Made by a program: the position numbers and the translations under genes
Origin: Parcubacteria group bacterium
Lineage (GTDB): Bacteria; Patescibacteriota; Minisyncoccia; Minisyncoccales; JAGUVE01
Direction of reading: 5' to 3'
DNA: 26,190 nucleotides
Assembly: GCA_020063075.1 (NCBI GenBank)
Contig: JAGUVE010000030.1
Coordinates: 1-26,190 of the forward strand
Shown: piece after piece, positions 4,940 through 17,333 of the stretch
Layout: each line of letters starts with the position of its first letter
Numbering within the stretch: the stretch's first letter is position 1
Notes under the pieces: model-generated
The model's database searches: none
What the model saw: only the letters and a program-made list of their open reading frames with translations
What the model was told of the DNA's origin: nothing

Positions 4940-4945
4940 GTTTTG

Positions 4946-4974
4946 ATTATATTTTTTTTGGGATTTTATGTCAA
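4946..4974 (-). promoter_or_regulatory. Perfect-consensus sigma70 promoter of murA; probably leaderless
   Basis: Minus strand TTGACA (4974-4969), N17, TATAAT (4951-4946), 6 nt, ATG (4939). Confidence 0.85.
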
Positions 4975-5000
4975 ATTAACTTTTAATCTAAAACATAACT

Positions 5001-5009
5001 TGCTAAAAT
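5001..5009 (+). promoter_or_regulatory. Extended -10 element (TGn-TAAAAT) 5 nt before the PEGA gene ATG
   Basis: TGCTAAAAT at 5001-5009, ATG at 5015; no clear -35. Confidence 0.5.
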
Positions 5010-5014
5010 GGAAT

Positions 5015-5965
5015 ATGGTCAAAAAAACGAGAGTAATTTTATTTTTGTCTTGTTTGTTCCTGTTTTTTTTTATTGCCTCGGCTTCTATTTTTTATTCTCT
5101 CGGCTACCGATTTGATTTAAAGACAAAAAAAATCGTACAAACCGGCGGGATTTTTTTAAAAGTTGAACCAAAATCGGTAAATGTTTTTAGCGATGAAAAA
5201 TTGAGCGAGAAAACCGATTTTTTATTCGGCACGGTTCTGATAAAAAATTTACTGCCGGGAAAACATAAAATTAGGGTGGAAAAAGAGGGTTTCTATCCCT
5301 GGGAAAAAGTTTTGGAAGTTAAAGAAAAAGAGGTGGCTGAGGCGAAGAATATTATTTTAATTAAAAAAGAGCTTAATTTTGAGGTCTTAGCTAAAGAAGT
5401 AAAAAATTTTTGGCCGTTTCCGGACGGCAAAAAAATTCTTTTGGAGATTGAAATTGACGGCGACTTTAAAAAAAACATTTTGGATTTGGATAAAATTCCG
5501 CCGGCTTTGATTGATGCCACAACTTCGGTTCTGGAAAATGCCTCCACTTCTCAGAAAATTAATGGCGAACTTTACTATTTGAATAAATCGGGGTATCTTT
5601 TTAAAGATAAGGAAAAATTGATTGATCTGCCATTTGGAAATTTTAAGATTTCTCCCGAGGCAAAAAAAATAGTTCTTATTAACGACTACGAAATTTGGGT
5701 TTTATTCATCGAATCTTCTGAAAAACGATTTTTAACCAGATTCTCAAAAAAAATCGGAGAAATTTTTTGGTATAATTCCGACTATTTGCTCTTCAGGATT
5801 GGAAACGAAATAAAAATAACCGAAATTGACAACCGGGACCGGCTGAATATAGTTAACTTGGCTGATTTTAAAGAAACGCAGAAAATTTTCTTCAATCAAA
5901 ATGATAAAAAACTCTATATTTTAAACAAAGATAATTTCCTTGTCTCAGAAAAACTTTTACCCTAA
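5015..5965 (+). CDS. Membrane-anchored PEGA-domain protein (start moved to ATG 5015)
   Basis: N-terminal hydrophobic anchor, then GYRFD...QTGGIFLKVEPK...LLPGKHKIRVEKEGFYPWEK typical of PEGA; C-terminal beta-rich region. Confidence 0.75.
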   Translation: MVKKTRVILFLSCLFLFFFIASASIFYSLGYRFDLKTKKIVQTGGIFLKVEPKSVNVFSDEKLSEKTDFLFGTVLIKNLLPGKHKIRVEKEGFYPWEKVLEVKEKEVAEAKNIILIKKELNFEVLAKEVKNFWPFPDGKKILLEIEIDGDFKKNILDLDKIPPALIDATTSVLENASTSQKINGELYYLNKSGYLFKDKEKLIDLPFGNFKISPEAKKIVLINDYEIWVLFIESSEKRFLTRFSKKIGEIFWYNSDYLLFRIGNEIKITEIDNRDRLNIVNLADFKETQKIFFNQNDKKLYILNKDNFLVSEKLLP

Positions 5966-5991: not shown

Positions 5992-6253
5992 TTCAATCGC
6001 TCGGCAAGCTGGTTTTCAGGGATATGGAAAAAACGAGTTTTAGAGCGAAGGCAGAATTGTCTTAGGTTGACACTTCGCAGCCGAGCCCATAACTTTATTT
6101 TGTATTTCAGCGAATGCTCTGGGCGGCTCGGCGAGAAATAGCAACTGCGGAAAATAACTCGTTTTATCCACTTAAGCCGATTGCGTGTCAACCTTAGGCA
6201 ATCTGCCGAGCGATTGTTAAACCGTTTGAAAACCAGCTTGCCGAGCGATTGAA
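5992..6253. mobile_element. 262-bp MITE-like or structured element with perfect 27-bp terminal inverted repeats
   Basis: ttcaatcgctcggcaagctggttttca (5992-6018) is the exact reverse complement of 6227-6253; further internal helices; no transposase, no clear target duplication. Confidence 0.65.
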
Positions 6254-6301
6254 GGCGGGGTTTACTTTTTTAGAAAATCTGGTAAAAATTAAAGGTGTTA
6301 A

Positions 6302-7171
6302 ATGACCTTTAAAATATCTGTGCCTTTGCACCTAACCGGTTTTTTTAGCCCCAATTTTGCGGATAATCCCCTGCTAGCCGGGTCAAAGGGAACCGGATTA
6401 GTAATAGTCCCGGGGCTTACCTGCATCTGTAAATTTTCGGAAAAAAAACAAGGAAGAAATAAAGTAATCTATAACGGCGTTAAAACAAAAATAAAACCCG
6501 TAGAAAAACTCTTTGAATTAACCGATTTCAACAGAAGGGTTTTATGCAAAATATCTTCTCCGGTTCCTCTGGGCTTTGGTTATGGCGCAAGCGCCGCCTC
6601 AACCCTGGCCGTTTCTTTGGCTCTTCACAGATTTTTGAAAAAACCCGACTCGGCGGCGGCTCGACTCGCGCACATCGCCGAGGTCAAGTCCTTAACCGGC
6701 TTGGGAGATGTGATTGCGCTGTTTGAAGGCAAGGACTTAACGATAAGAACTAAAACGGGAACGCCGGGAATCGGCCTGACTAAATCATTTTCGCAAAAAG
6801 GAAATATCAGAATTGTTGCCGTTGATTTAAAAAAAATAAGCACGCGAAAGATGCTAAAATCAATGAGTCCTGCGGCATCGCGCTTTGGTTTAAAACTCCT
6901 CAAAAAATTTATTAAAAATCCTGACCTTGAAAATTTCTTTAAATATTCTCAGTTGTTTGCTAAAAAAATGAAATTCGCAGATGAAAATTTTTTTGATAAA
7001 TTGGAGCCGCTCAAAAAATACTGCATCGGATTTACGGTTAAAAAGGGCGTTTTATTTGCGGCTGCCGAACAAAATAAACTAAAAAATGCCGTTTCTATAT
7101 TGAAAAAAATTTCGCCGGCAATTCATATTTTTAAATTCGGCGGAGGAATTAAAAAAATGTATGCCACATAA
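6302..7171 (+). CDS. Archaeal-type pantoate kinase (PoK, GHMP kinase family)
   Basis: [22 protein letters not shown] loop [28 protein letters not shown]; overlaps the downstream phosphopantothenate synthetase gene. Confidence 0.85.
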
Positions 7172-7911
7172 TTTTACAATACCCAAATCGCACCCGAGAT
7201 ATTTTTCGCTCGTCCAAAGAGAAAAATTGGTTGATGGTTTTAAAAAAGGAATTGTTGCCGCGGAAGGATTAATCGCCCAAGGCCGGGGAGAAGCGTTTGA
7301 TTATATTTTGGGCGAAAAAACCTTGAAACCGGCAATGGAAGCCGGTAAAGCGGCGGCTGCCTTTCTTTTGCTTGCGAAACGCCCGGTAATCTCGGTCAAT
7401 GGAAACGCCGCCGCCCTGTCGGCAAAAGAAATCGTTAAATTGGCTAAAGTTGTTGGCGCAAAAATAGAAGTCAATCTATTTTATCGCACCGAAAAACGGA
7501 AAAAAAAAAATAAAGGACTTGCTAATTTTAGCTGGCGCAGATAATGTTTTAGGAGCGGGAAAAGACGCTTCGGCCGTTATACCCGAATTAATGAGTGAAA
7601 GAAGAAGGGTTGACCCGAGAGGAATTTTAATCGCCGATGTTGTCTTGGTTTTTCTGGAAGACGGCGATAGAACCGAATCCCTGCTCAAAATGGGGAAAAA
7701 AGTAATTGCCATTGACTTAAATCCTTTCTCAAGAACGGCTCAAAAAGCGACGCTCACCATTGTTGACAATATTGTCAGAGCAATGCCGCTTCTTATTAAA
7801 ATGAGCAAAGAATTCAAAGAGTATAAAGAGCAAGATTTGAAATCAATTTTTAAAAACTACAACAATAGAATAATGTTAAAAGAAATGGTCAAAATAATAA
7901 GGAAAACATAA
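7161..7911 (+). pseudogene. Archaeal-type phosphopantothenate synthetase (4-phosphopantoate--beta-alanine ligase, PPS), frameshifted at an A11 tract; 249 aa if one A is removed
   Basis: ORF 7161-7544 ([37 protein letters not shown]) and ORF 7519-7911 (LEDGDRTE, IDLNPFSRT, IVDNIVRA) join in frame by deleting one A from 7500-7510. Confidence 0.88.
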
Positions 7912-8081
7912 GATCGACAAATGGTTTCAGAGCGAGGGCATCTCGCCGAAGGGTGCATCCCAGTAGTAGAAGCTTCGCTTCACTACGGGACTTCGCTTCG
8001 CAGCCGACGGCGTGCCTGCCCCGTAGGGAAACCGAAGGTTTCTCCTTCGGGGCTCCCTGAGGCAAGATGACCGAGCGATTG
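7912..8081. repeat. Structured intergenic element with two nested CCC(A/C)GTAG hairpins; shares three sequence blocks with the 5992-6253 element
   Basis: Hairpins at 7959-7989 and 8019-8052; shared blocks GTTTYAGAGCGARGGCA, CTTCGCAGCCGA and CCGAGCGATTG in the same order. Confidence 0.7.
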
Positions 8082-8089
8082 GAAAAATT

Positions 8090-8635
8090 ATGTCTGTGAA
8101 AAATAAAAAAATTTTAGTTGGTGCGAGCGCCGGAATTTCAATTTACAAAACCTGCCTTTTGGTAAGATTATTTATGAAGCAGGGCGCCCAAGTAAAAGTG
8201 GTGATGACCGAATCCGCGGCAAAACTCATTTCGCCGGTTGTTTTTCACTCCTTAACCCAATCCCCTGTTTGTGTCTCAATGTTTGAGCCAGAACTGGGCT
8301 TGGAGCACATAAATTTGGCAAAGTGGGCCGATGCTTTTGTTTTGGCTCCAGCCACCGCCAACACCATCGCAAAAATAGCCCAAGGCATTGCCGACAATCT
8401 TTTAACCACGATTATTTTAGCACTGCCTGAAAAAACGCCTTTGATTGTCGCGCCGGCTATGAACGACAATATGTGGAAAAATGTTTTTGTCAAAGAAAAT
8501 GTCGCCAAATTAAAAAAAAGAAGAAATTGTTATATTGTCGGCCCAAAAACCGGTGTTCTGGCTGACGGAAAAGAGGGCGAAGGAAGAATGGCGGAACCCG
8601 AAGAAATTTTTAAGGTTGCTAAAAAAAATATTTAA
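8090..8635 (+). CDS. coaC: Phosphopantothenoylcysteine decarboxylase (stand-alone CoaC half of CoaBC, HFCD flavoprotein)
   Basis: KILVGASAGISIYK, VKVVMTESA, EHINLAKWAD, APATANTIAKIAQGIADNLL, APAMN, GEGRMAEP. Confidence 0.9.
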   Translation: MSVKNKKILVGASAGISIYKTCLLVRLFMKQGAQVKVVMTESAAKLISPVVFHSLTQSPVCVSMFEPELGLEHINLAKWADAFVLAPATANTIAKIAQGIADNLLTTIILALPEKTPLIVAPAMNDNMWKNVFVKENVAKLKKRRNCYIVGPKTGVLADGKEGEGRMAEPEEIFKVAKKNI

Positions 8636-8638
8636 AGT

Positions 8639-10858
8639 ATGGAGGAAAGCATTGAAAATATTTTAAAAAAAACGGAAAAACGGATAGAAGAAAGAATAAA
8701 AGAGGAAAAATACGAGCAGAGGTATTTGAAAAATTTGGACATAAACGAACCCGTAAGTGTAAGCGATGACGCTTTTCCTGACGCAAGCAGAGTTAGAGTA
8801 AAAGATGTAAAGGCCGGGGAAACGGCATTTTGGAGCGCGGTTTATTGCGAAGCAGACAAGGTTGAAGCAGAAAGGGCGTTTGAACACGCAGGGGATTGCC
8901 GGGCAAAAGAAGTGAAGGCAGGTGTGGCATTTTCCGAGGCGAAAAACTGCCAAGCGGAAAAGGTTGTTGCAGATTCCGCATTTTATGGTGCAGAAAATTG
9001 CCAAGCAGACGAGGTAGATGCTGATATAGCATTTCCCTTTGCGATAGATTGCCAAGCAAATAAAGTTAAAGCTGAGGGTGTTTTTGCGAGAGCAAAAAAT
9101 TGCCAAGTAAATAAAGTTGAGGCTAAATTTCATGCTTTTGAAGAAGCCGAAAAATTTCTTGTGAAAGAAGAAATTAAATCCGGAAAGATGGGCGAACGAT
9201 CTCGGGGTGGCGTGATGCTTGGTGAAATTAAAAAGGGTGAAATTTTTCCTTCGGTTATTTTAATGAAAGATAAGGTAAAAGACGACCCATCTAAAGTGAA
9301 AGAATTCTTTGAAAACGAAATGGAAAAAGCCCGCAACAAAGAGGGTAATATCTTTGATAAACTTTCTTATTTTAACTGGGAAGGAAAAACTTTAGAAGAG
9401 GGGGAGAAAAAACTTAAAGAACGTTATGACGGGTTTATTAATGTCTTATTCAATAGATTTAAAGATGAATATTACCTTGCTTTCTTGTCAATGACCGAAA
9501 CTAAATTCAAGAAAAATTTTTATTTAATGCTGGATAATACTTTAAAAAAGGAGGGTTTAAAAGATTCATATTTTTATTATCTCGTTGATGATAATTCCAA
9601 AAGACAAGAAATTTTTGAGGGATTTTTTAAATCAGAGAAGGTAGAAAAAAAATCTCTTCAAGAACTAAATGATTATTTACCAAAATTTAAAGAAACAAAA
9701 GAACACCTTAATCTTCTCTCTTTGAAGAACTGGGTAAAATTAGGAAATCTGGCTGAGTTTTTGAATTTTGATAAAAAAAGAATTGATAACATTAAACAGG
9801 ATATTGAAAAAGTTGAGCTCGGCAAAATGGTTGAAAACCCCGACGAATTTAATAATTGGAAAACGGCGAAAAAGATAAAACAATTTGAGCGTTTGGGGAA
9901 AAGATTTAACACTCAGCAATTAATTAAGGAGTTTGAAAAAGAAAAAGAAGGCAAAATAAATTCAGGCATCAAAGAATATATTTTAAATTCTCCGGAAAAA
10001 AATCTTGATAATTATTTAAAAAAAATCGGCTGGAAAGGCGAGGAAAACGAAGACATTATTTTTGCCGCCAGATTGCATAAGGTCTTAGCAAATAAAGGCG
10101 AAACGAAAAACAAAGAGGTTTTGGAAAAATTGCTCAAGGGCAAAAACCCTCTTGACTTTAAAGAAAATAAACTTTGGTTAGATGAAATGAAAGACAAAAT
10201 CAACGCTGAAAAATGGCTTTCTCATAAGCAAAAGGATTATGTGCCAATCGGCAAAAAAGATTATTCGGTTTCTCTGGAAAAAAGCAGAGCAGAACAACTT
10301 AATGAAGTAGTAAGGCATTTTAAAGAAATCGGCATAGAAATTAACCCGGAAATACAGGAAATTGAAAAAATTTTTTCTGAAAAAATAAAAGATATGCCGC
10401 AAAATATAATAAAAGATATAAAGAATCATATTCAGGCATATAAGTCAGGTTTAGGTATAGAAAAAAGCGCTTTGCCCAAAAAAATTATTTTGGAAACCGA
10501 AGAAAATCCGCTAAAAATAATTCAGATGGGCGAAAAAGTGGCAGGTTCCTGCTTGGCAATCAGAGGAGGACATGAAGAAAGCGCGGTCTGCAACGCGGCG
10601 GACATTAACAAAAAAATCATCTGGGCAAAAGATGAAAAAGGAGAGATATTAGGCGGGATTTTGGTAGGCATTACCGACGAAGGAAAATTAGCCCAGTTTA
10701 GGGTTTTTAATAATAACCCCCGTTTAGACGTGGAATCTTGCTATAAAGATTTTATTTCTGAATTTGCCGGCGAACTCAAAACCGAAATTACATCAAAAGG
10801 AAATATAAAAGAACTCGTTGGCGAGAATTGGTACGATGATAGAGTGGTGAAATTATAA
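8639..10858 (+). CDS. Hypothetical 739-aa protein: N-terminal 17-aa Cys-ladder repeats, helical middle, C-terminal MG..SCL..G...NAAD.NK domain
   Basis: Long ORF 3 nt after the coaC stop and 5 nt before the coaB start; no signal peptide or TM segment visible. Confidence 0.85.
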   Translation: MEESIENILKKTEKRIEERIKEEKYEQRYLKNLDINEPVSVSDDAFPDASRVRVKDVKAGETAFWSAVYCEADKVEAERAFEHAGDCRAKEVKAGVAFSEAKNCQAEKVVADSAFYGAENCQADEVDADIAFPFAIDCQANKVKAEGVFARAKNCQVNKVEAKFHAFEEAEKFLVKEEIKSGKMGERSRGGVMLGEIKKGEIFPSVILMKDKVKDDPSKVKEFFENEMEKARNKEGNIFDKLSYFNWEGKTLEEGEKKLKERYDGFINVLFNRFKDEYYLAFLSMTETKFKKNFYLMLDNTLKKEGLKDSYFYYLVDDNSKRQEIFEGFFKSEKVEKKSLQELNDYLPKFKETKEHLNLLSLKNWVKLGNLAEFLNFDKKRIDNIKQDIEKVELGKMVENPDEFNNWKTAKKIKQFERLGKRFNTQQLIKEFEKEKEGKINSGIKEYILNSPEKNLDNYLKKIGWKGEENEDIIFAARLHKVLANKGETKNKEVLEKLLKGKNPLDFKENKLWLDEMKDKINAEKWLSHKQKDYVPIGKKDYSVSLEKSRAEQLNEVVRHFKEIGIEINPEIQEIEKIFSEKIKDMPQNIIKDIKNHIQAYKSGLGIEKSALPKKIILETEENPLKIIQMGEKVAGSCLAIRGGHEESAVCNAADINKKIIWAKDEKGEILGGILVGITDEGKLAQFRVFNNNPRLDVESCYKDFISEFAGELKTEITSKGNIKELVGENWYDDRVVKL
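8771..9183 (+). repeat. Intragenic tandem repeat, 51-bp (17-aa) period, about 8 units, consensus xAFxxAxxCxAxxVxAx
   Basis: TGC codons at 8846, 8897, 8948, 8999, 9050 and 9101 (exact 51-bp spacing); TGCCAAG conserved in the last four. Confidence 0.85.
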
Positions 10859-10863
10859 AAATT

Positions 10864-11532
10864 ATGGTTAAAAGTTTAAAAAATAAAAAAATTTTAATCA
10901 CGGGGGGGCCGGTCTGGGTTCCGCTTGATAAAATAAGGGTTATTACCAATGTTTTTACGGGCGCTTTGGGTTTATTAATTGCCAAAGAAGCCGCTAAAAA
11001 CGGGGCGATGGCAACCCTGCTTTTGGGGCCCAGTCCCCTGCCCCTTCCAACAAAATTGCCTAAAAATTTGAAAATAATTCGCTTCAATTTTTTTGAGGAA
11101 CTCTGTAAATTAATGAAAAAAGAAATATCTTCTAAACAATATGACATTGTTATTCATTCAGCCGCCGTAGCTGATTTTATTCCCAAAGAGAGCCGAGCGG
11201 GAAAAATAAGCTCAACTAAAAATAACCTGACCGTAAGATTAAAACCGACCCAAAAAATAGCGGATAAAATCAAAGTTTGGGCAAAAAAAGCGTTCCTGGT
11301 GAATTTTAAACTTGAAGTTAATTCAGCCAAAAAAGAACTAATAAAAAAAGCCCGGAAATGTATGCTTGCGTCAAGGGCTGATTTAATGGTGGCTAATGAT
11401 TATAAAGATATAAATATAAAAAAGGGCGGACACAAGGCGTTTATTGTGGACCGCGCGGGAAATATCATCTCCTGCCGGACAAAAAAAGAAATCGCCGAAA
11501 AACTTTTAGAGGCGATTTTAGAAAAAATCTAA
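10864..11532 (+). CDS. coaB: Phosphopantothenate--cysteine ligase (stand-alone CoaB half), divergent
   Basis: KILITGGP..PLD..RVITN, HSAAVADF, GKISS, L.PT.KI, FKLE, DLMVAND. Confidence 0.82.
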   Translation: MVKSLKNKKILITGGPVWVPLDKIRVITNVFTGALGLLIAKEAAKNGAMATLLLGPSPLPLPTKLPKNLKIIRFNFFEELCKLMKKEISSKQYDIVIHSAAVADFIPKESRAGKISSTKNNLTVRLKPTQKIADKIKVWAKKAFLVNFKLEVNSAKKELIKKARKCMLASRADLMVANDYKDINIKKGGHKAFIVDRAGNIISCRTKKEIAEKLLEAILEKI

Positions 11533-11533
11533 T

Positions 11534-12217
11534 CTAAATTTCTAATTTTTGAATTTTACTTTTAAAACTTTCCCAACCTATTTCTTTCTCTCCGGCTGAA
11601 CGGCAAATATCCTTAAACTGACAATATCGACACTGCCAGTTGTCCGGATAATCGGGCAACCGCAAGGGAACTATGTCGCCCTCAATTTTTGCTTTAATTT
11701 GAGCTAAATCGTTTAAAAGTTTTTGACAACGAAGCGGGTCATAATTTATTACAAATTCTTTTAACTGGGAAGTATTTTTATTCATATATAAAAGAATCCC
11801 TTTTGGAATTTTGAAAAAATGCAAATAGAGCTGGATTTGATTGATGTTTTCTTCTTTCGCCGCCTCTAATTTTTGAAAAATCATACTGTTCATACTCTTG
11901 AAATCAACCACATAAAGTTCGTTGTTTAAAGTAATGATAGCGTCGGCTCTGCCTGAAATCATTTCTTGGGGCGGGATATTTATTTCCGAAGCCCTAACTA
12001 CGCCCAAACTAAACAAGGTATTTAAAATCTGCATTTGGACATAGTCGCCGTGGTCAAACATTCTCAGAACCTCGGGCGTCATTTTCTCTCTCGGCACATT
12101 TTTAAACTTAAAAAAAACCGCCCGGCCGCATTTTCCGGCATCGGTAATGTAAAAACGGTGCTGTTCTCTGTCTCTTTCCCGGTCAGAATAAAATTTATCA
12201 ATAATTTCTTTTAGCAT
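11534..12217 (-). CDS. Solo Cas4-like PD-(D/E)XK nuclease with predicted 4Fe-4S cysteines
   Basis: KCGR (Cys1), SGRADAII...VVDFKS, QIQLY, C-terminal CRYCQFKDIC; no other cas gene or array in the window. Confidence 0.8.
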   Translation of the reverse strand: MLKEIIDKFYSDRERDREQHRFYITDAGKCGRAVFFKFKNVPREKMTPEVLRMFDHGDYVQMQILNTLFSLGVVRASEINIPPQEMISGRADAIITLNNELYVVDFKSMNSMIFQKLEAAKEENINQIQLYLHFFKIPKGILLYMNKNTSQLKEFVINYDPLRCQKLLNDLAQIKAKIEGDIVPLRLPDYPDNWQCRYCQFKDICRSAGEKEIGWESFKSKIQKLEI

Positions 12218-12830: not shown

Positions 12831-12858
12831 ATTGTAGCAAAATAAAACATTATGTCAA
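12831..12858 (-). promoter_or_regulatory. sigma70 promoter of the TA operon
   Basis: TTGACA (12858-12853), N16 ending in TGC, TACAAT (12836-12831), 8 nt, ATG (12822). Confidence 0.75.
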
Positions 12859-12931
12859 AATCTACAAAAGTAGAAATTGGATATATCTATTAGACAAAAA
12901 AATGCACAAAATTTTGCAAAATATATTATGA

Positions 12932-14720: not shown

Positions 14721-16580
14721 ATGCTTACAAAAAGACAAAAACAGATTCTTGATTACATAAAGAAGTTTATAAAAGACAAGAACTACTCTCCTTCTTTTGA
14801 AGAAATAAGAAGGCATTTTAGATTCGTTTCAAAATCTACCGTTCATCACCACATAGAAACACTAAAAGAAAAGGGATGCCTTAACCGCGCACGGACTATA
14901 GAGTTGTCTAAAGATGAAAAATCTTCTGGCCTTGTGGAAATTACCCTGCTCGGCACCATTGCTGCCGGCCAACCAATTGAAGCGATAGAAAATCCAGAAA
15001 CGATAACTATTCCTTCTAGCGAATTGGGAAGGTATAACAATTATTATGCATTAAGGGTTGAGGGAAATAGCATGATTGATGATGGAATATATGATGGCGA
15101 CATTGTAGTTATAAAACAACAAAGCACTGCGGATAATGGTCAGACTGTCGTGGCTATTATCAATGACAATGAAGCAACACTTAAAAAAATATACCGAGAA
15201 AAAGACAGATTTAGGCTACAACCAGCAAATCCTACTCTTTTTCCAATTTATCCAAAAGAATTAGAAGTAAGAGGCGTGGTAGTAAAAATTATTAGAAATT
15301 TTGAAAAACAAATTGTAAGAGAAAAAATATCAGACCATAAATTACAAAGAAGAATTGATTATTCGTGGGATTTCAATGGTGCAAAAACAAAACCTTATAC
15401 ACATGGATTTCATACCTATCCGGCGATGTTTATTCCTCAAGTCGCAAGACGACTCCTTTTAACTTATAGCCAAAAGGGCGATACTATTTGCGATATATTC
15501 TGTGGTTCTGGAACCGCCTTAATTGAAAGCAGATTACTCGGCCGTAATTCTTATGGCATAGATCTTAATCCTTTGGCTACATTTCTGGCCAAAGCCAAGA
15601 CCATACCCATTGATCCAAAAATTCTTTCAAGAGAATATTTAAAACTTTTGGACAAAATCAAAAAAATTAAAAATAATGAAATAGAGAAGCCGCAATTTTA
15701 TAATATTAACTTCTGGTTTAAAGATAAAATTATTATTGAACTGGCAAAAATAAAAAAGGCAATTAGAGAAATTAGCAATAAAAATATCCAGAATTTCTTT
15801 TTAGTCGCTTTTAGCGAGACAGCGAGAAAGTCATCAAATACAAAAAGTGGGGAATATAAATTGGTAAGAATGAGAAAAGAAGAATTGGAAAAACATAATC
15901 CGAATGTTTTAGAAATCTTCAGAAAAAGGGTTGAAACGAACCTTAAAGGAATGGAAGAATATTATAAAGATGTTGATAAGAAAACATGGGCTAAGGTTAT
16001 CTACGGGGATTCATCCAAAGATAATAGCATAAAAGAGAATTCAATTGACTGCATAATAACTTCGCCGCCTTATGGAGATAGCAGAACAACTGTTGCTTAT
16101 GGTCAATTCTCTCGTCTTTCTGCCCAATGGATAGACATCTTTGATAATCCTGATGATGCCTCTGGCGTAGATAAAAAATTATTGGGTGGCAATGGCATAC
16201 CAACTATAAACCATTATTTGCCTTCAAACTACCTAAAAGAATCTTTGCAAAAAATACAAAAGAAAGATGAAAAAAGAGCAAAAGAGGTCTTAAGTTTTTA
16301 TATTGGATTGAATGATTGTCTCAAGAATGCCTACGAAATATTAAAACCAAATAAATACTTTTGTTTAGTAATAGGAAACCGCCTCGTAAAACAAGTAAGA
16401 ATCCCTACCGATTTTATAATTGCTGAATTAGCCGAAAAAATCGGGTTTGTTTGCGAAGATATTATGGTTCGTAATATTCCTGGCAAAAGAATGCCAATTA
16501 AAAACTCACCAACTAATATTGCCGGCGAATTGGAAGAAACGATGACTAAAGAAAGTATAGTGATATTAAGGAAAACCTAA
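14721..16580 (+). CDS. LexA repressor fused to an alpha-class N4-cytosine DNA methyltransferase (619 aa from ATG 14721)
   Basis: LTKRQKQILDYI/SPSFEEI/STVHHHI HTH; IAAGQP cleavage site; GNSM Ser and TLKK Lys; then HTYPAMFIPQ, DIFCGSGT (motif I), TSPPYGDSRTTVAYGQFSRLS (motif IV), KRMPIKNSPTN; one uninterrupted frame. Confidence 0.92.
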   Translation: MLTKRQKQILDYIKKFIKDKNYSPSFEEIRRHFRFVSKSTVHHHIETLKEKGCLNRARTIELSKDEKSSGLVEITLLGTIAAGQPIEAIENPETITIPSSELGRYNNYYALRVEGNSMIDDGIYDGDIVVIKQQSTADNGQTVVAIINDNEATLKKIYREKDRFRLQPANPTLFPIYPKELEVRGVVVKIIRNFEKQIVREKISDHKLQRRIDYSWDFNGAKTKPYTHGFHTYPAMFIPQVARRLLLTYSQKGDTICDIFCGSGTALIESRLLGRNSYGIDLNPLATFLAKAKTIPIDPKILSREYLKLLDKIKKIKNNEIEKPQFYNINFWFKDKIIIELAKIKKAIREISNKNIQNFFLVAFSETARKSSNTKSGEYKLVRMRKEELEKHNPNVLEIFRKRVETNLKGMEEYYKDVDKKTWAKVIYGDSSKDNSIKENSIDCIITSPPYGDSRTTVAYGQFSRLSAQWIDIFDNPDDASGVDKKLLGGNGIPTINHYLPSNYLKESLQKIQKKDEKRAKEVLSFYIGLNDCLKNAYEILKPNKYFCLVIGNRLVKQVRIPTDFIIAELAEKIGFVCEDIMVRNIPGKRMPIKNSPTNIAGELEETMTKESIVILRKT

Positions 16581-17333
16581 CGACAAAATCTCTCTAAATC
16601 TTTGGTAATCTTTGAAAATATTTTTATCTTCCCGTATTCCTTCACATCTTTATTGCAAACATATACTCCTTCTAATTCTTGCACTCTTTCTCTATTAGCT
16701 CCGCTTTCAAATGTCTCCCAAGCCGTAACTAACAACACTTTTATTTTAAGATAACGAGACCAGGTGATTGTCTGCATTATCCTTTCAGCTAAAGTTGTCT
16801 TGGCAGATATTATCGCCATTGGTTTATTCCCTTTATCGGTTCTGACCAAAATAATATCAATATCTGGCCTGTAATCACGCACCCCCTTTTTACCCACTTT
16901 TGTTTTAAGTTTTTGCTCTAATTCTCTTTTAATCTTTCCGCTTGTAATTGCTTCAAGCGGAATCTTTTTTTTGTAAAAAATAAGTGTTTAAAATTTTAGC
17001 AACCCACAGAGCAAAATTATTACCAGCCAATGGACGCATTGTATTGGCAATACTCCTGCCTATCACTCGCAATTCCAAAAGCATTCGAGGATCCCCAAGT
17101 ATTTTTTCCCATTTTGGCAATGTTTGTGGGCTTGCCCATTTTTTAACAGCTCTTGGGGTAATAATTTTAACGACATCTTCATCGGAATTTTTCAAAATTG
17201 TAGCTAAATCGTCTCCTATTTTTAGAGGATTATCTGATTTTTTCAAAGCAGAATCTATTTTATCATCAAAAAACTTTTTAATAACTTCTTTAAATTCACT
17301 TTCTTGATTTTTATTCCAATTAGTATGAAGCAT
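16577..17333 (-). pseudogene. Type II restriction endonuclease, BsaWI/CCGG-family-like, frameshifted at an A8 tract; 251 aa if one A is removed
   Basis: ORF 16953-17333 and ORF 16577-16897 join by deleting one A from 16965-16972, giving ...FLQKKIPLEAITSGKIKRELEQKLKTKVGKKGVRDYRPDIDII...SAKTTLAERIMQT..W; PD..D..K core; convergent with the MTase. Confidence 0.75.

Follow-up and report, generated by a model that had tools for sequence, protein, structure and literature searches.

The window analysed here, a 26,190-nt stretch which is the whole of contig C15 of a Patescibacteria (Candidate Phyla Radiation, CPR) genome (712 kb, 118 contigs, 87.5% complete) from a groundwater bacterium with a tiny genome, carries at positions 6302-11532 what is very probably a functional operon for the middle steps of coenzyme A (CoA) biosynthesis, in which pantoate kinase (PoK) and 4-phosphopantoate--beta-alanine ligase (PPS) would be archaeal and derive from an old transfer. 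In the proposed route, the enzymology of which is deduced throughout from family membership, PoK would phosphorylate pantoate with ATP, and PPS would join beta-alanine to 4-phosphopantoate to yield 4'-phosphopantothenate, the archaeal order of reactions, replacing PanC and pantothenate kinase. A stand-alone CoaB would subsequently add cysteine and a stand-alone CoaC would decarboxylate the product to 4'-phosphopantetheine, while the rest of the pathway would be encoded elsewhere in the genome with CoA as the probable end product, required at least by the thiolase/HMG-CoA reductase (mevalonate) pathway. The source of PoK and PPS was probably a TACK-type archaeon, from which the two adjacent genes passed together into the forebear of a small subclade within the order, and the pair has probably been inherited vertically ever since in one chromosomal slot under purifying selection.

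The locus consists of five open reading frames (ORFs) arranged head to tail, all on the plus strand. An earlier, sequence-only reading of this DNA had described four co-oriented CoA genes, the identities and strand of which hold in Pfam and NCBIfam scans, and had missed a fifth ORF of 739 aa located between coaC and coaB. The 11-nt overlap of pok and pps that it had noticed is read directly at 7161-7171, and coaD, coaE, panB, panC and panD are, as it had stated, not in the window.

The first gene, pok (6302-7171, plus strand), encodes a 289-aa pantoate kinase of the GHMP kinase family, as judged from NCBIfam, PDB and conserved columns. While PF00288 matches residues 75-142 with 34.5 bits (cut-off 22.3), the two best NCBIfam models are those of pantoate kinase (NF041122 and NF040725, COG1829) with 105 and 77 bits (E 4.5e-30 and 1.2e-21), and the single PDB match is the PoK of Thermococcus kodakarensis (TK), 6JBC (E 3.6e-23). 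Identity to archaeal PoK amounts to approximately 30-42%. All 30 columns which are at least 90% conserved among 75 PoK proteins from outside the CPR, 72 archaeal and three from other bacteria, are kept by the window protein. S28, S97, H124, E127, R149 and T181 align with Ser28, Ser104, His131, Glu134, Arg155 and Thr186 of the TK enzyme, which we take to be the functional residues of the 6JBC structure.

The second gene, pps (7161-7911, plus strand), is split in this assembly into 7161-7544 and 7519-7911 and encodes 249 aa if read through. PF02006 (PPS_PS) matches both pieces, and the read-through protein (P0002) scores 317 bits with NF041123 (cut-off 300) and 361 bits with NF010324 (cut-off 227) and aligns with T. 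kodakarensis PPS 3WDK (E 1e-74) without a break across the frameshift. By these comparisons PoK as well as PPS genuinely belongs to its archaeal family, with phosphorylation of pantoate and ligation of beta-alanine as their predicted activities. Pantoate kinase models, 6JBC and 3WDK being the best matches, other GHMP kinases or non-PPS proteins as best homologues, an outcome that would have spoken against the sequence-only reading, were not encountered.

The frameshift of pps is a +1 shift in an A11 homopolymer (7500-7510, plus strand). Two JGI metagenome contigs from other samples (L004 and L005), which match the window with 99.95% identity over 17.9 and 11.8 kb, have A10 at this position and encode an identical intact PPS of 249 aa. 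The only indels between the window and these contigs are A11 versus A10 in pps and T8 versus T7 at 16965, each of which breaks a gene in the window alone. In relatives the site of the A-run, there an A9, reads GAAAAAAAAATT (E-K-K-I). No reads of this strain were found; the sequencing runs that were found hold 5-10% of the sampled words and correspond to groundwater metagenome contigs, and therefore to relatives and not to this strain. As two independent assemblies of 99.95% identity have A10 and an intact ORF, the frameshift is most likely an error of this one assembly in a homopolymer, or else a minor variant. The T8 run at approximately 16965 splits a BsaWI-like restriction endonuclease gene (16577-17333), which in the T7 assemblies is an intact gene of 251 aa.

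The third CoA gene, coaC (8090-8635, plus strand), encodes a stand-alone phosphopantothenoylcysteine (PPC) decarboxylase of 181 aa, which matches PF02441 (Flavoprotein) with 116 bits and TIGR00521 with 201 bits over model positions 1-177, and in the PDB the CoaBC of Mycobacterium smegmatis 6TGV (E 7.6e-32). It contains PATANT, PAMNDNMW and the histidine in LEHINL; PxMNxxMW and PASANT-type motifs together with an active-site histidine are what we assume, from the Dfp/AtHAL3a literature, to be marks of PPC decarboxylases. The clamp of CoaC, G-x-L-A-x-G-x-x-G-x-G-R-M, is of the bacterial/eukaryote type, while the clamp of TACK CoaBC is six residues shorter due to a deletion and is not of this type. 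The last gene, coaB (10864-11532, plus strand), encodes a stand-alone phosphopantothenate--cysteine ligase of 222 aa, with matches to PF04127 (DFP; 130 bits, cut-off 22, residues 5-183), NF005231 (130 bits) and TIGR00521 (124 bits over positions 182-391), and with 2GK4 of Streptococcus pneumoniae as the best PDB match, besides 5INT and Escherichia coli CoaB 1U7U (E 6e-14).

The best 120 relatives of CoaB are all stand-alone proteins of approximately 220 aa, the few named ones being from Patescibacteria, and by this comparison CoaB belongs to a Patescibacteria-wide stand-alone family. CoaC and CoaB are only 33-38% identical to TACK CoaBC; the case against a TACK origin of the two rests on the clamp indel and on the Patescibacteria-only best matches. 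With the bacterial-type clamp of CoaC and the stand-alone patescibacterial relatives of CoaB, an archaeal provenance is shown for PoK and PPS only, CoaC and CoaB being of bacterial/CPR type, and the operon is, as far as sequence tells, a mosaic. The horizontally acquired archaeal module of the sequence-only reading consequently has to be narrowed to PoK and PPS, with CoaC (bacterial-type clamp) and CoaB (Patescibacteria type) falling outside of it.

The phylogenies that had been proposed as a check place the CPR clades of both proteins within archaeal (TACK) diversity. In the PPS tree (104 rows) the CPR sequences form one clade of 19 rows (SH-aLRT 99) with a short stem (0.15) among TACK sequences, and the sister group of this clade (SH-aLRT 87) consists mostly of Bathyarchaeia and Nitrososphaerota. 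All rows which neighbour this clade are TACK archaea, except for three scattered bacterial ones (Spirochaetota, Hydrothermota). The nearest unnamed PPS proteins, 71-81% identical, are members of the CPR clade, and the nearest named ones, with 60-68% identity, come from Thermoproteota, Bathyarchaeia and Nitrososphaerota. In the PoK tree the CPR clade (23 rows, SH-aLRT 99) is located inside a TACK clade of 54 rows (99), sister (76) to a group that contains Methanomethylicia. PoK lies directly 5' of PPS in TACK loci, which fits a transfer of the pair as a block. PPS with an adjoining PoK is also present on contigs L057, L095 and L101, which carry the labels Candidatus Hydrothermota, Spirochaetaceae and Sediminispirochaetaceae, respectively, and which are apart from the CPR PPS clade.

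The position of the operon on the chromosome is conserved. The 'Candidatus Nealsonbacteria'-related contig L007 and the genome G831 share the order MreB, MurA, PEGA, PoK, PPS, CoaC, CoaB and nuclease, followed by rpsI-rplM-...-rpoA-rpsD-rpsK-rpsM-infA, and the gene order around the operon is conserved in L007, L019, L021 and L023, murA/mreB lying upstream and rpsI-rplM-rpoA-rpsD-rpsK-rpsM-infA downstream. The slot, with murA and the PEGA gene on one side and the PD-(D/E)XK nuclease and rpsI/rplM on the other, is kept in four further families (GTDB) of this order, and the same junctions are found in two JGI, three ENA and one NCBI assemblies as well as in five GTDB genomes. The borders are not chimeric, a danger which the sequence-only reading had named, as the junctions recur in L004, L005 and the four other families. 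A recent or host-specific transfer does not fit either: with one slot kept in four other families the transfer appears old and followed by vertical inheritance. Vertical inheritance in the lineage, which the sequence-only reading had expected to lower the novelty, is indeed seen as the conserved chromosomal slot. Variants of the locus lack coaC and coaB (G812 and G868) or pok (G823 and G874); in G823 pok is located on another contig.

The operon and the core genes upstream of it have the same GC content (0.41-0.43). Versus L007, dN/dS is 0.16 for pok, 0.21 for coaC and 0.26 for coaB, and spans 0.16-0.26 for the four CoA genes compared to 0.10-0.11 for murA and the nuclease gene; by this measure the four CoA genes are under purifying selection. 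The distribution of the families, counted with exclusion of the own genome G000, is narrow for PPS: PF02006 matches 0/40 of the nearest relatives, 0/400 genomes of the class and 1/400 of the phylum, and a search with protein P0002 finds six among 400 genomes of the order, with a seventh match of 18 bits left out as being at chance level. CoaB (PF04127, above cut-off) is present in 11 of 300 genomes of the order, and the archaeal dephospho-CoA kinase (DPCK, PF04019) in 55/300 of the order and in 1/90 of the rest of the phylum.

The remaining steps of the pathway have to be sought outside of the window. In the own genome and four PPS-bearing relatives PanC, CoaX and CoaE were not found (0/5 genomes; CoaA, the type I pantothenate kinase, was not part of the search), while the archaeal DUF359 kinase (PF04019), a GTP-dependent DPCK, is encoded by all five. 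The own DPCK, at C21:1216-1713 (94 bits with PF04019), has the T. kodakarensis GTP-DPCK 8JVC as its single PDB match (E 1.9e-18), and it keeps the equivalents of Asp48, Asp67 and Asp125, residues shown to matter in the TK enzyme (PMC6650551). An archaeal/eukaryal-type phosphopantetheine adenylyltransferase (PPAT) is present in the two relatives checked, G812 and G831 (NF001985, 190-195 bits, cut-off 104), in G812 on the same contig as pok-pps; the two other relatives have PF01467 matches. All four archaeal-type enzymes, PoK, PPS, PPAT and GTP-DPCK, thus named, are encoded by G812 and G831, and PoK, PPS and GTP-DPCK by the own genome. Of the four relatives three have panB, with panE adjoining in both examined, and two have panD. 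A pyridoxal-phosphate-dependent aspartate decarboxylase (PF00282) was discarded, with only a sub-threshold match of 16 bits.

In the own genome a panE fragment is cut at C19:3, the very start of contig C19, and an archaeal-type pyrH runs off the end of C8 (C8:4332-4817), the fragment being 84% identical to the archaeal-type UMP kinase (pyrH_arch) of G831, the one relative examined at this point, where pyrH is followed by PPAT. As panE and pyrH, neighbours of these genes in the relatives checked, are at contig ends, panB and PPAT most likely fall into assembly gaps beside the truncated genes. The genome also encodes an HMG-CoA reductase (C111:2051-3025) and a thiolase (C21:92-1219), which adjoins the DPCK gene and matches archaeal acetyl-CoA acetyltransferase models. 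AcpS was not found in any of the five genomes; with HMG-CoA reductase and thiolase present, CoA and not the holo-acyl carrier protein looks like the end product.

The genome search that the sequence-only reading had called for has accordingly given a divided answer, with panC, coaX and coaE not found and a panE fragment and DPCK found. Its scavenged pantoate is probably too narrow a view, given the panE fragment here, panB-panE in relatives and panD in some of them, and so, probably, is a pathway which ends at 4'-phosphopantetheine, as an archaeal GTP-dependent DPCK is encoded in the genome. A wider reading, for which the chances appear even, is that the subclade makes CoA de novo with archaeal PoK, PPS, PPAT and GTP-DPCK at every step where archaea own a non-homologous enzyme, in combination with bacterial-type PanB, PanE and PanD, split CoaB and CoaC and a link to mevalonate.

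Several observations weigh against a functional operon with transferred archaeal genes. The pps gene is frameshifted in this assembly, PPAT (PF01467), panB and panD were not found in the own genome, 87.5% complete and in 118 contigs, and two exact-pattern scans of metagenome contigs for an extension of C8 found nothing. The A11 run, the three genes not found in this assembly, and the repeat elements and the foreign 739-aa gene inside the operon could together mean that the locus is a decaying relic, with a true frameshift of pps and gradual loss of the pathway, as might be expected of a symbiont with a reduced genome. We consider this improbable, with a small chance left to it, because in two assemblies of this same population the run is A10 and pps is intact, the window's two sole indels are both +1 in homopolymers with the broken genes intact elsewhere, the other four ORFs are intact with dN/dS at 0.16-0.26, and the flanks of the 'missing' genes, panE in both relatives checked and pyrH in G831, are at contig ends. 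A further adverse point concerns CoaC. Cys175 of AtHAL3a is the clamp cysteine that reduces the ene-thiol intermediate of PPC decarboxylase, and residue 159 of CoaC (approximately 8564-8566), which aligns with it, is Asp. The plant and human PPC decarboxylases have Cys at this position, the window protein and its closest relatives have Asp, and other CPR CoaC proteins have E, S, N or I; since the M. smegmatis CoaBC likewise has no Cys there, the clamp cysteine appears not to be universal.

Adverse, too, are the scores of PoK, which at 105 and 77 bits are far below the equivalog cut-offs of 500 and 380 of the NCBIfam models, cut-offs that are lineage-specific. That the GHMP kinase is a kinase of the mevalonate pathway and not a pantoate kinase could be argued from these cut-offs and from weak matches to mevalonate and homoserine kinase models, from PF00288, which is common to all GHMP kinases, and from the presence of a mevalonate pathway (HMG-CoA reductase, thiolase). 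It is nevertheless highly unlikely, as the mevalonate kinase model reaches just 22.6 bits (E 6e-5), the sole PDB match is a PoK, the 30 conserved PoK columns are kept without exception, and the overlap or adjacency of pok and pps is maintained both within the CPR clade and among TACK archaea. The trees, finally, are unrooted 'quick' trees from the best 80 genome matches, with a bias to TACK archaea, support for the sister relations is weak (SH-aLRT 87 for PPS, 76 for PoK), and the approximately unbiased (AU) test does not reject a single clade for all 24 bacterial PPS rows (p 0.113). PPS sequences elsewhere in the tree, from G1100 (with Methanocellales, 97), G500, two Spirochaetota and one Hydrothermota genome, suggest separate transfers into different bacteria, which in view of the AU test we do not claim. 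An unrooted tree, the AU result and an archaeal-type DPCK in approximately 19% of the order would be compatible with PoK and PPS already in a CPR (or bacterial) ancestor and lost almost everywhere, with no transfer from archaea. Such ancient inheritance is quite unlikely, considering that PPS is present in approximately 2% of the order and in at most 1/400 of the sampled genomes of class or phylum, that the CPR clade has its short stem among TACK sequences with 60-68% identity, and that the PPS of G1100 and G500 are found elsewhere in the tree. That archaeal DNA was wrongly joined to a bacterial contig, or binned together with one, is extremely unlikely. Such an artefact would agree with the near absence of the PPS family from the rest of class and phylum and with one close PoK homologue labelled 'Methanomicrobia archaeon' (NCBI; P0136), but the operon is located mid-contig between murA/mreB and bacterial ribosomal-protein genes, its junctions are repeated in the JGI, ENA, NCBI and GTDB entries given above, and its GC content is that of the upstream core genes. 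The 'Methanomicrobia' label itself is probably a binning error, because a near-twin protein (P0137, approximately 1% different) is encoded on a 184-kb contig (L121) of CPR type with RRF, RseP, the PEGA gene and split coaC-coaB. A functional operon with PoK and PPS from an old archaeal transfer is the explanation we retain.

Both enzyme families, and the order of reactions deduced here, are known from T. kodakarensis (TK2141 and TK1686; 6JBC, 3WDK; PMC6650551), in comparison to which the host here is a bacterium and pok and pps overlap by 11 nt. The adjacency of pok and pps is shared with TACK archaea, whereas the archaeal route has a fused CoaBC and here one operon combines the pair with split bacterial-type coaC and coaB. 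Archaeal PoK and PPS in a bacterium have already been published: in sponge-associated Candidatus Poribacteria (Entoporibacteria) they replace PanC and PanK, which has been read as possible horizontal transfer, PanK and PS being absent, and bacterial DPCK, PPAT and fused CoaBC are kept (Thomes and Lescure, 2020, PMC7883664). This is the sole published bacterial exception that was found. In contrast to the Poribacteria, the own genome and its four relatives encode an archaeal GTP-DPCK, with CoaE not found, an archaeal-type PPAT is present in both relatives checked, CoaBC is split, the host is a CPR bacterium of reduced genome, and the neighbours in the PPS tree are TACK and not euryarchaeal.

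The GTP-dependent DPCK family (TK1697, arCOG04076/DUF359) has been described as archaeal (Shimosaka et al., 2019, PMC6650551); its homologue here is in a bacterium, as in the 55/300 other genomes of the order and the 1/90 elsewhere in the phylum. With the stand-alone CoaB and CoaC of Streptococcus and Enterococcus the locus shares the separation of the two genes, with 120 bits for TIGR02114 (coaB_strep) and 153 bits for TIGR02113 (coaC_strep), both below the equivalog cut-offs; it differs in that the nearest relatives of CoaB are the Patescibacteria-wide family and that in this strain the 739-aa gene separates coaC and coaB. In the literature searched, no paper was found which links pantoate kinase with the CPR (Patescibacteria) or which links pantothenate with Nealsonbacteria. 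What is added is one more bacterial lineage for a known exception, with an archaeal enzyme set that is more complete than in the published case; the type of system is not new.

The 739-aa protein (8639-10858, plus strand, GC 0.30) belongs to no named family, with no match in Pfam, NCBIfam or PHROG. Its C-terminal domain is common to 1156 representative clusters, none with a Pfam family, and in the AlphaFold2 model of residues 495-739 (pLDDT 89) it adopts a GNAT-like fold: the top 50 matches in VIA-align are all GNAT acetyltransferases (Z 7.2-8.9), and the PDB list of Foldseek holds GNAT-fold or CoA-binding proteins (E 6e-3). The likeness to GNAT, based on a model, may serve as a fold-level lead, nothing more. 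The C-terminal domain has an invariant S-C-L motif, and the N-terminal part approximately six degenerate repeats of approximately 20 aa. The protein was rejected as a member of the pathway, as its homologues sit in unrelated gene contexts and the slot between coaC and coaB in relatives is empty (L007, L019) or taken by another gene (a split agmatinase-like gene in L006), and the gene is regarded as a later, lineage-specific insertion.

Two spacers of the locus are built from dispersed repeats. The first is a modular element (5992-6253, no strand assigned) with perfect 27-nt terminal inverted repeats, 48 nt 5' of pok, the modules of which recur on at least nine other contigs of the genome. The second, recognized by the recurrence of its modules, is the spacer between pps and coaC (7912-8089, likewise without strand), of which bases 48-141 are 99% identical to C51:8926-9019 and other modules are found on C52, C118 and C7. 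Both share the motif CCGAGCGATTG in four copies, the modules of the two together recur on at least 10 other contigs, and relatives have a different pps-coaC spacer or none. Since Rfam has no family in the window and the spacers are dispersed repeats, no riboswitch explains these structured spacers, which look like miniature inverted-repeat transposable elements (MITE) or repetitive extragenic palindromic (REP) elements and not like operon-specific regulators.

The Shine-Dalgarno-like AAGGTG (6292-6297, plus strand, read directly) is located 4 nt before the ATG of pok. Such motifs are present at two of 24 gene starts of the window, pok and pps (GGAGGA), the other 22, core genes included, having AT-rich leaders free of them; the claim that AAGGTG is archaeal in style does not hold, as it is an ordinary motif of this kind and not diagnostic of archaea. 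Promoter and terminator scans gave sites no more numerous than in shuffled sequence. The upstream flank carries the bacterial genes for RseP, RRF, the delta' subunit of DNA polymerase III, MreB and MurA, and a gene for a PEGA-domain protein (4943-5965, plus strand; a weak Pfam match) outside of the pathway, of which a homologue is directly 5' of pok in L006, L007, L020, L021 and L121. Downstream, a PD-(D/E)XK/Cas4-like nuclease gene (11534-12217, minus strand), identified by family scans, is a conserved neighbour, 3' of the operon in L006, L007 and L019-L023, and ribosomal-protein genes follow further on. A repeat of approximately 36 nt is present as a single copy at 12856-12894 of the window and as a four-copy array at 7088-7323 of L006, where the 62-67-nt spacing is CRISPR-like and the array is near the Cas4-like PD-(D/E)XK gene.

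The route via PoK and PPS has been used as a marker which separates archaea from bacteria. The present locus indicates that CoA enzymes have been replaced across domains on more than one occasion, that some ultra-small bacteria probably produce their CoA themselves without scavenging it, and that a number of genes of archaeal type (CoA enzymes, UMP kinase, thiolase) co-occur in such genomes. It also corrects annotations such as 'GHMP kinase' and 'hypothetical protein' and flags homopolymer errors of this assembly, the automatic JGI annotation already naming some members of the clade correctly. If the subclade does make CoA de novo, its pathway would be more thoroughly 'archaeal' than that of the Poribacteria, and the nested distribution of the genes (DPCK in approximately 19%, CoaB in 4% and PPS in approximately 2% of the order) would reflect gain or loss in steps. 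Such a pathway would also be at odds with the common opinion that CPR bacteria are unable to make cofactors.

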